Positions 3,001-6,000 of a DNA stretch of 14,325 nucleotides are shown here, in pieces (position 1 is the stretch's first letter; each line of letters opens with the position of its first letter). The DNA comes from a virus (taxonomy: Duplodnaviria; Heunggongvirae; Uroviricota; Caudoviricetes): IMG/VR virus record IMGVR_UViG_2778261533_000003, one strand, 5' to 3'. The position numbers were made by a program.

Positions 3001-6000
3001 ATAAGTGATAATAATTCTTATTATTGAATTGTATGACAAATGATTATTCTCTTTGAGATGTGCACGAGTGAACATTCGTTCAACAAATGGTAGAACGTTT
3101 ATTGAGCAACAATTTTGCAGTGATACGCTATATGCCGCATTACATAAGGCTTTGGTGATGGTGACGTAAAAGTGAAGAAAGTAAGAATTGCACTTTGAAG
3201 CTACTTTTCATTGAATTTTTAGTATGGAATTACATAGGGATTAATCATCAATTAATCTTGAATTTAAGCCTGTTTTTTTAATTTTTGATAGCAAGAAACA
3301 CTTTTAGAAGATCATTGCACAGATGTTGTGTGGGGGGGTGTCGGTCACGATGACTGGGGGGTGTCGGTCACGATGACTGACAATAAGATTACTTTAATAA
3401 TACTAATAATAAAACTAACAACTAACTATAATTATCTTTTAAAGAATAATTATAGGGATACCCGTTAGGGGAGTCTTCGACTATCCCTTAATCTATTGGC
3501 AATCGTATAGTGCGGGTTTCCTACCTACCCAGGAAATGAGTTCCTACCTACCCAGGAAATGAGTTCCTACAATACTATAATTAAACTACAATTAAACTAT
3601 CTTTTATAAATTCTTTTATCTTTTAAAGAATAATTATAGGGATACCCGTTAGGGAGTCTTCGACTATCCCTTAATCTATTGGCATTCGCCAGAACCTTGC
3701 ACAAGTTAGACTGATGCTTGTCATAACAGATAGTTTTTGTTTTTTGTTTTTTGTTAGTAGTTAGCTGATCTATGTTCGCTTTCCGCTCACAACGAATATG
3801 TAATCTACTATGTGCAAATAGCCTACGGCTTGCGTATGGCTAATAGTCTTGCGCTGTGCGCAGAACGATAATTAACTAACTACCATCTAACGATTGAAAT
3901 TTACTTGTGCAATAACCTGAGCGTAAGCGAATGGTTGTTAGTGTCGCGTTACCCTTTGGGGATGCTAACGCATAACATGACAAAACAACCAACAACAAAA
4001 AAGAAAGAATGGTTTTTGTAGTTGAAGGTTAAATAAGATTCTACCGCTTAAATCAAGCCGTAGGCGAGCTAAACAGGGTAATGTAAGGGAAACACCTTAG
4101 CGGTAATAGATTAGCTCGTTACAGAGCTTCTGAGAACTTTGCAGGTATTTTATAAGATGTCTGAAATCAGAGTTTATCTATCCACCATCTTTCCATCATC
4201 TGATAAATCAAAAATAAGCCCCTTAAATAAGCCTCTGACGAGATAAACAACCTCTACATAAGGGAATGTATTGTTTTTATCAAAACCCCGTCAGAGTGCG
4301 ATTGAGAGCGTTTTAGACAACAGGGAAGAATTGTACCAGAGTAGGCAGCACAAAAAGCTAAGAAAAATTATAAGAAATTGAAAATGATCAAATTTTTTAT
4401 AAAAGAGGGTTGACAAAGCCGCCGTTATGTAGTATTGTAAGTAGGGAGGGGAGAAACATCTCTCTCCATCTAAATAATCAAATCACAGAACACTGCACTT
4501 TGAGCCGTCAGGCTGCAAGGTGTGTTTTTCTTTTATCTAAATAAGGAGTTTTTTATGAAATGGTATACACCGGAACACGTCGTAGAGGCATTTAAAAAAG
4601 GTGAGCTAACACGACATCAAGTAAGGATGAACAGGAACACAGCGCGGCGCTGTGGTTATCCAGAGCGTGAAAAATGCTTTGACGATGCACTAAAAATTAT
4701 TGATGAACTGCGTAAGGCAGAAGCAGAGAAAGAATAATAACAGGAGAAGGAGAAAACCAAATGAATATTAATTTTGATTCTGCAACTTATAACGCGTTGT
4801 TAAATCGTGCAAAGGCAGAAGGGAAATCAATTCCAAAACTTGTTAATGAATTACTAATTACAGTCCTTACAAAGGAGGAACTAAATGAACCAAAACACCA
4901 AAACAATTGCCGAAGCAAAAGCGCAATGCCTCAATAAGAAAGATAGTAAACAAACATATGTAGTAGTTGAACAATGGCTGAAGATGTTTAAAAAGTGGTT
5001 CTCACCGTCAGGTAAGGAATACACCGCGACACTTCCAGCTGTTGAAATCTACAGTTACGTAGCTGGGTTCAATGAACAAGGGCAAGAATGTTACGCCAAT
5101 CAAAAAACATTAGCTAATATTGGAATGGTTAGTGATCGTCAGGTGCGTAATATTATAAATATGTTTATTGATATGGGTGTTCTTTCTGTAGAGGCACGGG
5201 ACGGGCAAACATCACTCTATAAAGCATTACCCTTTACAGATGCACACATCACACCACCGGAAGACGTAAAAACCTCTGTAAACGTAGAACAGCCTGCACC
5301 TGAAACACAGGAACCGTTAGAAGCGACACACTCTATTGAGCAGGAAACACAGGCAGAAATCACGGAACAATCTGATCTTTTTACATGGCTTATTTCCATA
5401 GACAGCCAAAAGCCTATGCAAGAAGAAACAGAAAATTTTATAAAACGTGCACTGACCTCGAAGAGGATAATTCTTGAAGATGATGCTTTTAATGCACTGA
5501 TGATAGCCCTGAGAAAAGAAAGTGAAATCTATGACTCAATACCATTTTAAGGAGAATAAAAAATGAAATACAACCTGACATTAAACAAACGAACATTCGA
5601 AATTACAGAAAGCGGCTACACACTGGCAAAACAGCTTGCTGATAGCAATTATGAGCTACCCGCGATTATCAGCTTTCAGGAGTTACCGCACAGTAAAGAA
5701 CACACGCAGCATTGGCTAAATCACCTAAGCCATTTTGGGGTAATTCAGTATGAAGCTGTGAATAATCAAACGTTCAGACTGCTTGAGATAAGCCCGTTTG
5801 AATTGTGGGTGACACTGTGATCATATTCGATGGCGAATTTTCACAAGAAATCTTTCTGCAATATTTACGGGAAAGAACGGGAATGATTCTGTTTGATTCT
5901 GAGTTTTCCGGTGTGGTAGGTGAGCAATTTTTATATGCTCTTCTCGATAACCTAAGTAAACAAGGATTATTGCAGTATACAAAAACTCATATGAAAGCAT

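Follow-up and report, generated by a model that had tools for sequence, protein, structure and literature searches.

Arms races between phages and their satellites have so far been worked out mainly in Vibrio cholerae. There, a non-coding region of ~3 kb, next to a cluster of leftward genes, holds the semi-palindromic iterons that make up the origin of the satellite PLE (Barth et al., 2020, PMC7145576; see also PMC7567579). The N-terminal domain of the PLE RepA protein co-varies with this origin and its C-terminal domain is exchanged independently, and Odn of phage ICP1, a chimera between a RepA-like domain and a T5orf172 domain, cuts the iterons of the PLE origin (Barth et al., 2021, PMC8263062). 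Here we consider a stretch of 14,325 nucleotides (the window in what follows), filed in IMG/VR as a virus of the Caudoviricetes (record IMGVR_UViG_2778261533_000003). It is a phage-satellite-like chromosomal island of Escherichia coli, ~13.9 kb long, inserted at a tRNA-Gly site, and the window is 99.9-100% identical to its counterpart in genome NZ_CP148382.1. Within a large region of the island devoid of open reading frames (ORFs), positions 3332-3700 would form its replication-origin zone, made of two origin-like units in tandem with iterons recognised by proteins of the type of the island's own Rep-like HTH_36 protein (Rep). We give this reading a probability of about 0.7.

The zone begins with two exact tandem units of 23 bp, GGGGGGTGTCGGTCACGATGACT, at 3333-3355 and 3356-3378 (TRF score 94). 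These are the G-tract repeats that the original prediction, drawn from the bare sequence of the window, had noticed and sized at 18 bp; the repeats are there, their size is not the one proposed. As had been claimed, a further 23-bp tandem repeat, TTCCTACCTACCCAGGAAATGAG, exact and in 2.3 copies (3518-3570, TRF score 106), sits between two long direct repeats. The latter are 74 and 73 nt long (3432-3505 and 3616-3688) rather than ~67 bp, and are one 1-nt indel and one substitution apart; each holds the internal hairpin announced, GGGATA...TATCCC, at 3455-3487 and 3639-3670, that of the second copy having a z score of -4.1 when folded as single-stranded DNA. The palindromic core AGGAAATGAGTTCCT of the central repeat occurs at 3531-3545 and 3554-3568 only, the whole window having been searched, with centres 23 bp apart. 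This represents four strand-matches against 0.45 expected, a count reached in none of 200 shuffles. After each array come ~75 bp at 80-90% A+T and then the conserved hairpin of the 74-nt repeat. Since every repeat block is thus followed by an A+T-rich stretch and a hairpin, the layout once called nested is really that of two origin-like units in tandem: two repeats of what we call class IV, an A+T-rich stretch and the first 74-nt copy (unit 1, 3333-3505), then 2.3 repeats of class I, an A+T-rich stretch and the second 74-nt copy (unit 2).

Among related elements, the unit of repeats, A+T-rich stretch and hairpin is shared by the whole family. Homologues of the ORF-free region are found in 747 of 5426 complete E. 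coli genomes (~14%), at glyU, thrW and other sites, and IMG/VR holds 22 further related loci. In relatives with a single copy of the unit the order is iterons, A+T-rich stretch, 74-nt element and the next conserved module, module C (Table 1), the 74-nt element being the counterpart of the second copy of the window. Its hairpin shows compensatory changes (GGGGTA/TACCCC) in locus L013 and is a perfect 14-bp hairpin in L136. Iteron origins are expected to have several direct repeats of ~17-30 bp, spaced by multiples of the helical turn, next to an A+T-rich unwinding region. Unit spacing is 23 bp in the window, relatives have 2-5 copies with a 22-23-bp period, and A+T-rich stretches adjoin the arrays in all relatives inspected. 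The very text of the second A+T-rich stretch of the window also follows the class I arrays of L003 and L013.

The strongest evidence comes from comparing these repeats with the protein. The repeat zone of every relative displays palindromic tandem-repeat arrays, mostly with a 22-23-bp period, that fall into distinct classes: I (TAGGAAATGAGTTCCTA), II (GGTAGGTCACTGTGAGCTAGGGG), III (ACAGAATTCTGTTAGACACCCCC), IV (the G-tract unit of the window), V (TGATACCCCTATCA) and VI (GTAAC-N5-GTTAC). The HTH_36 protein is itself modular, with at least five unrelated types of N-terminal domain and two main C-terminal types, and at least seven repeat classes could be matched to Rep domain types. Among 26 distinct related loci, the repeat class present in multiple copies follows the type of the Rep N-terminal domain without exception (Cramer's V 1.00, permutation p <= 5e-5), class I being multi-copy in all loci with an N1-type Rep, the type encoded in the window. 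By contrast, repeat class is associated neither with the Rep C-terminal type (V 0.49, p 0.10) nor with module C, although this module physically separates the repeats from the gene (V 0.39, p 0.38). A neighbourhood shuffled by recombination, in which repeat class is nevertheless never split from the N-terminal domain, is what marks a protein and the sites it binds. Comparison of the loci thus shows the repeats to be the predicted recognition sites of the N-terminal winged-helix domain of Rep.

Class IV, left without a partner in the first data set, provided an out-of-sample test, because its predicted partner had to be a Rep type that the window does not encode. The loci coding for a P0025-type Rep (L136-L138) carry 2-4 tandem copies of GGGGGGGTCGGTCACGATGACC, which has a 15-nt core identical to that of the class IV unit of the window; their arrays are followed by A+T-rich text matching window positions 3376-3420, and classes I, II, III and V were not found in L136, L137 or L138. 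The N-terminal domain of this type, N2b, is 88% identical to N2, the class II type, with about 10 of the 13 differences located within residues 64-99, the predicted recognition helix and wing (SSASTIKRKIND vs ASVSTIQRKIKD for the recognition-helix residues). A second such test used L140, a Logan contig encoding a 46%-identical Rep: at the equivalent position, an A+T-rich stretch comes after three GGCAAT-N-ATTGCC palindromes that are spaced by 22-23 bp.

Several features make an origin a better account of the zone than a set of binding sites only: the A+T-rich flank and hairpin of the units, matches of Rep to initiator families, its C-terminal tail, and the lack of another replication gene. At the family level, the only affinities of Rep are with replication initiators, with O-like proteins and with helicase loaders of the DnaD type, and its AlphaFold2 (AF2) model shows a winged helix joined by a disordered linker to a helical domain. 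A search of PDB sequences with Rep alone returned no match, and one with a Rep profile gave chance-level matches only, to winged-helix transcriptional regulators (best E 0.07). All Rep variants end in (D/S/E)-I/L-P-F, even when their C-terminal domains are unrelated, as illustrated by YDSIPF, the ending in the window, and by DFDIPF, DSDDIPFF and LEFEIPF, found among P0028, P0030 and P0036. This tail resembles the C-terminal motif of SSB, DDDIPF, which docks replication and repair proteins (PMC5872125). As for the rest of the island, no other candidate initiator or replication gene was detected.

The steps that we infer run from Rep binding to DNA opening and recruitment of the replisome. Rep would be made once transcription from the promoter at 4410 passes the leader terminator, probably on infection by a helper phage; the presence of both promoter and terminator ahead of the rep operon suggests that expression needs antitermination or read-through. 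Rep dimers would then occupy the two class I cores (3531-3545 and 3554-3568), and this binding would open the adjacent A+T-rich DNA (3571-3639). Finally, the C-terminal domain, with its SSB-like ...IPF tail, may recruit replisome-loading factors, those of the host or those of the helper phage.

A number of observations weigh against this picture. We infer origin function, and replication itself, from comparison of sequences. A search of 2600-4600 for TTATCCACA with up to one mismatch, for relaxed DnaA boxes and for the IHF consensus gave no match, and the window has two full cognate iterons where relatives have 3-5. The repeats lie ~1.3 kb upstream of rep, with a promoter between them. The PHROG E-values of Rep are weak, and neither Pfam RepA_N (PF06970) nor Phage_rep_O is matched above threshold. 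The loci are mutually related, so that the association between repeats and protein could partly reflect linkage, and three loci with an N2-type Rep also contain a class I array that is not cognate to it. In iteron origins, DnaA boxes and IHF sites are common, not universal.

The two units of the window differ in the protein that would read them. Unit 2 alone matches the N1-type Rep encoded by the island, and unit 1 carries the predicted sites of another Rep subtype. The A+T-rich text of unit 1 is of the kind found with class II, IV and VI arrays, that of unit 2 is of the class I kind. Because these texts differ in kind, the zone is the junction of two different origins at a shared 74-nt element and no simple duplication. 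The tandem layout is limited to a handful of near-identical genomes, the unit itself being present in all relatives examined. Copy number is labile: among near-identical strains, class IV is present in one copy in four genomes and in two copies in three, in strain FORC_042 the 74-nt repeat is present three times, once every 160 bp, and across relatives the unit of 160-184 bp is found one to three times. A BLAST search with 57 nt of the G-tract repeats had made class IV look confined to 7 genomes, a view abandoned when the N2b arrays were found via the protein route. The upstream unit (3333-3505) could be a relic or an intermediate of replicon-module exchange, produced by recombination within the shared A+T-rich/hairpin segment; alternatively, it might be a site fired in trans by a related island. 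A second related island is present in the window's own strain. Three loci (L004, L007 and L054) have a class II-type Rep and also contain a three-copy class I array, and in most loci inspected the repeat zone opens with non-cognate site classes in one copy each. Such non-cognate arrays and copies may be left over from module exchange, or may serve cross-talk between islands.

Of the four roles offered by the original prediction, replication, packaging, recombination or a structured non-coding RNA, the first is well supported for 3332-3700. Another possibility is that the arrays are operators, with the HTH_36 protein acting as a master repressor or activator of transcription, an immunity determinant, and the specificity classes being immunity types. 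Operators have to be considered because the winged-helix fold of Rep is generic. We deem them unlikely: only one promoter of the operon is conserved and the arrays are 0.85-1.5 kb upstream of it, a stretch at 85-90% A+T comes after every one of them, family-level matches point to replication initiators only, the SSB-like IPF tail is kept across unrelated C-terminal domains, and the island would be left without a candidate initiator. If, on the other hand, the repeats were sites of the adjacent small recombinase, used for resolution, inversion or excision, or a packaging site for a helper terminase, one would understand why a small tyrosine or serine recombinase gene stands at the left edge of the region in most relatives. 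The 74-nt direct repeats could also support deletion or duplication, and the copy number of the 160-184-bp unit does vary from 1 to 3. Yet repeat classes do not go with one or another type of recombinase (tyrosine, serine or none), and L007, L137 and L138 keep their arrays without any recombinase. No inverted segment was seen when 33 regions were compared all against all; an inversion or shufflon was discarded when no minus-strand high-scoring segment pairs appeared among 13, then 33 regions, and a recombinase gene that seemed flipped in L137 proved to be an unrelated 183-aa ORF. Similarity of the region to phage genomes is lacking, and no terminase small subunit is encoded. A recombination site is therefore unlikely, and recombination or packaging has, overall, a very slight chance of being the right account.

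RNA deserves more discussion, since the zone, or the whole ORF-free region, might be a structured non-coding RNA of which the repeats and hairpins are elements. Pairing in the hairpin of the 74-nt repeat is kept through two-sided changes in L013 and L136, and variant groups differ by three compensatory pairs in a hairpin at ~3943-3970. Folding of the minus strand of 3700-4140 gives z = -2.9, and in PLE the large non-coding region is the source of an abundant non-coding transcript (PMC7567579). However, these compensatory changes trace to one or two lineage splits, and the RNAalifold result for module C in five sequences is dominated by invariant pairs (covariation term +1.14). No Rfam match at E <= 1 falls in the region, the single match of cmscan over the whole window at this threshold being a chance-level Phe_leader at 12068-12154, and ARAGORN found no tRNA or tmRNA. 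The repeat zone has no bracketing promoter or terminator, its copy numbers vary between near-identical strains, and the repeats track a protein domain, not a structure. The long-range stem that had been proposed between T/G-rich and A/C-rich tracts stands as far as complementarity goes (78-85% over 20-23 nt) and fails on covariation: one T/G tract occurs with different A/C tracts among loci, and the duplex energy is -18.2 kcal/mol for cognate pairs against -18.0 kcal/mol for non-cognate ones. We find a structured RNA quite improbable for the repeat zone, and retain a replication origin as the preferred reading.

Table 1. Features of the window relevant to the putative origin and to its island (a dot marks features listed without a strand).
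Feature	Position	Strand	Description
Small tyrosine recombinase	1970-2548	-	Left edge of the ORF-free region
Left part of the ORF-free region	2549-3050		Specific to lineage and recombinase type
Module A	3052-3332	.	Strongly conserved, non-coding; invariant GTAAAAGTGAAGAAAG and ATTACAcAGG-like motifs
Class IV repeats	3333-3378	.	2 x 23-bp exact tandem units, core GTCGGTCACGATGAC; putative orphan iterons
A+T-rich stretch 1	3379-3455	.	80-85% A+T; ends in palindrome CTATAATTATCTTTTAAAGAATAATTATAG (3426-3455); putative DNA-unwinding element of unit 1
74-nt repeat, copy 1	3432-3505	.	Hairpin 3455-3487; end of origin unit 1
Class I iterons	3518-3570	.	2.3 x 23-bp exact units; putative cognate of the window's N1-type Rep
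A+T-rich stretch 2	3571-3639	.	85-90% A+T, ACTACAATTAA repeats; putative DNA-unwinding element of the cognate unit
74-nt repeat, copy 2	3616-3688	.	Hairpin 3639-3670; at the junction with the next conserved module
Module C	3689-4175	.	Non-coding mosaic of cassettes; several hairpins, T/G-rich and A/C-rich tracts
Module D	4175-4555		Conserved; promoter with invariant TTGACAAA, leader hairpin, intrinsic terminator
Sigma-70 promoter TTGACA-17-TATTGT	4410-4438	+	Conserved; upstream of the operon containing rep
Leader hairpin and intrinsic terminator	within 4410-4537, terminator 4487-4537	+	Before the first gene of the rep operon; z = -3.4
Rep-like HTH_36 protein, 221 aa	4885-5550	+	N-terminal winged helix (type N1), disordered linker, helical C-terminal domain, ...YDSIPF tail
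Major capsid protein	8797-9825		Nearest phage homologues in Stephanstirmvirinae and related ~150-kb myoviruses; 25% identity over full length
613-aa protein (PHROG label 'tape measure')	10173-12014		Nearest phage homologues in Stephanstirmvirinae and related ~150-kb myoviruses; 30% identity, residues 233-611, E ~1e-43
Right attachment-site repeat	13428-13449	.	22-bp TCGATTCCCTTCGCCCGCTCCA, identical to the 3' end of tRNA-Gly; island boundary

The region that surrounds the repeats is indeed free of ORFs of 60 residues or more between 2645 and 4409, as first described, and PGAP annotation is empty over 2549-4554 in the identical genome and in the homologous places listed; in the 40 best records and 60 others evenly spread, one short hypothetical protein is the only feature annotated under the match. 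A large ORF-free region is kept in every relative examined, and indels of 1 and 2 nt across the alignments argue against a hidden coding sequence. Nucleotide searches with the region gave no match among phage genomes, and island copies only in the plasmid collection. The distance from the module A anchor to the leader terminator ranges from 1.1 to 2.0 kb in the 33 loci where both anchors are present. In module D, neither the promoter sequence TTGACAAA nor the -35 element varies among 13 loci, and compensatory changes (AGCC/GGCT vs AAGCC/GGCTT) are seen in the stem of the terminator.

Several motifs were recorded on the way. Directly upstream of the tyrosine recombinase gene (2583-2725), AAATGATCA motifs at 2592-2603 and 2646-2654 are accompanied by 5.7 copies of a GATTAAA repeat (2659-2725) with ~10.5-bp phasing; a left part with both is present only in loci that have the tyrosine recombinase. 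The sequence TGATCATTTTCAAT (2598-2611) recurs inverted at 4377-4390, just upstream of the main promoter. Module C cassettes start with the palindrome GCGCTGTGCGC, one or two per locus, in variant forms (L012, L015, L021, L023, L085). A second, very divergent type of module C has the anchors TTCCGCTCACAnCGAA and TGCGCTGTGCGCAG alone in common with it, and both types form a stem around the first of these, TTCCGCTCACAnCGAA.

Gene order in the island starts with variable cargo, followed by the small tyrosine recombinase (minus strand), the ORF-free region, a small ORF and the HTH_36 protein (4885-5550); then come small ORFs, a lambda-E-type major capsid protein, the 613-aa protein and the integrase (minus strand). 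In relatives, the small recombinase is of the tyrosine type, replaced by a small serine type, or absent. A PLE-like satellite would be expected to have an integrase with attachment sites, a replicon of its own, structural genes akin to those of a helper phage, and no full set of genes for virion or packaging. The island has an integrase and attachment-site repeats; terminase and portal were not detected in it. The cargo between tRNA and small recombinase (102-1755) consists of three hypothetical genes, on which PADLOC returned nothing significant; in E. coli relatives its place is taken by DUF4145 or GmrSD proteins (L010, 85-1656), and in a divergent relative by a TIR-domain protein (L139, 2373-3518). 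The ends of the window, 1-64 and 14217-14280, are 64-nt inverted repeats, 98% complementary, and genome matches reaching its right end have an IS3-family transposase annotated there. Terminal repeats and annotation taken together, the island and some of its flank appear to be bracketed, in the source, by inverted copies of an insertion sequence. The thrW locus of O157 Sakai carries unrelated prophages; the Logan contigs L139 and L140 (12-14 kb) are not circular. A scan of genome contigs with Rep gave no match, and the family appears to be restricted to Escherichia.

In a second ORF-free gap (7308-8188) we noted a candidate small RNA of ~245 nt (7331-7612), with a promoter TTGACT-17-TAGAAT that has an extended -10 element (7331-7359) and a terminator at 7584-7605. 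Positions 7529-7544, predicted to be single-stranded, are a perfect 16-nt complement of the ORF at 6581 over its ribosome-binding site and start; positions 7530-7549 are 80% complementary to the ribosome-binding site/start region of the 613-aa gene at 10173. This candidate has no Rfam match. At the corresponding place, a promoter, an anti-Shine-Dalgarno motif of the UUUUCCUU type and a terminator are likewise present in relatives L003 and L004.

Phages hold counterparts of Rep. The virulent Justusliebigvirus phages muut, inny, BI-EHEC and Mt1B1_P17 (~146-151 kb) encode proteins in which two island-type Rep N-terminal domains are joined to a MUG113/T5orf172 domain, MUG113 scoring above the Pfam cut-off and T5orf172 below it. 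In muut_154 (P0019; locus L135 of Escherichia phage muut, MN850573) the two domains are N5 and N1; in P0022, from metagenomic contigs of ~150 kb, they are N3 and N1. The N1-type domain of the phage fusion is 75% identical to residues 30-143 of the window's Rep. No iterons were found in the 7-kb phage locus of muut. Since their architecture is that of ICP1 Odn, these fusions are candidate origin-directed nucleases against the island family. The capsid and 613-aa proteins are closest to those of Stephanstirmvirinae, the subfamily of the fusion-encoding phages, which we count in favour of a satellite origin. It is tempting, if as yet tentative, to see in this family the E. coli counterpart of the PLE-ICP1 pair: a widespread satellite of virulent Stephanstirmvirinae (phAPEC8-like) phages, with Rep/origin classes that would diversify under attack by dual-specificity origin-directed nucleases of the muut_154 type, tandem origins that would be intermediates of module exchange or escape products, and an initiator that would recruit the replisome via a mimic of the SSB tail. 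We think it possible, with the odds somewhat against it as a whole.

While an iteron origin is in itself of a well-known kind, the satellite-like element that carries it is widespread and apparently undescribed: its family is annotated almost entirely as hypothetical, and neither the family nor an origin-directed nuclease of E. coli was found described in the literature searched. An origin would explain a 2-kb stretch that genome annotation leaves blank. Clean natural swaps of specificity, with at least seven repeat classes matched to Rep types, make the family a ready-made system for the study of initiator-DNA recognition. Combined with the Odn-like phage fusions, it would provide, in E. coli, a tractable model of satellite-phage arms races. 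Experimental interest attaches to the swapping of specificity, to the putative second, orphan origin, to the apparent mimic of the SSB tail and to the fusions between Rep domains and candidate nucleases.

How does this module compare with other initiator-origin pairs? The origin of lambda lies inside its O gene; specificity for the origin resides in the N-terminal half of O, and the C-terminal half interacts with the loading machinery, a division of labour that Rep would share. As in lambda, palindromic iterons of the island adjoin an A+T-rich region, and Rep has weak O-like matches in PHROG. In contrast, the putative island origin is ~1.3 kb upstream of rep and not inside the initiator gene, the island lacks a P-like helicase loader, and Pfam Phage_rep_O stays below threshold. 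Repeated initiator sites that adjoin or flank an A+T-rich region, with cognate Rep-origin pairs, are likewise shared with SaPI/PICI elements and with iteron plasmids such as pSC101, P1, F and R6K. The island resembles SaPI/PICI further as an integrated element with putative amplification after induction. In SaPIs, Rep is a helicase that is either joined to a primase or works alongside one, unlike the 221-aa winged-helix Rep of the island, which has no enzymatic domain; and the island region differs from iteron plasmids in that no DnaA boxes were found there.

The closest parallel to the Rep/origin module of the island is RepA/ori of PLE. Differences are not lacking. The two systems have no detectable sequence similarity, their hosts are E. 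coli and V. cholerae, and the island Rep is an HTH_36 protein that ends in an SSB-like IPF tail. Because the Pfam domain RepA_N is not matched and a structural score does not discriminate, our claim is that Rep would work like RepA, not that it belongs to that family. There are at least seven specificity classes in the island family against two in PLE, and the window has two tandem putative origin units of different specificity. The phage chimeras carry two DNA-binding domains; in muut_154 and P0022 these are in tandem and of different specificity types, unlike in Odn, and the nuclease role of the chimeras is putative. What the two systems have in common is organisation. In both, iterons occupy a non-coding region between a leftward gene cluster and rightward ones; in both, the N-terminal domain of the initiator co-varies with the iterons while its C-terminal domain shuffles independently. 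And in both, phages encode a chimera of a Rep-like DNA-binding domain with a T5orf172-type domain: as Odn does, muut_154 and P0022 join DNA-binding domains of the satellite Rep type to a MUG113/T5orf172 domain.

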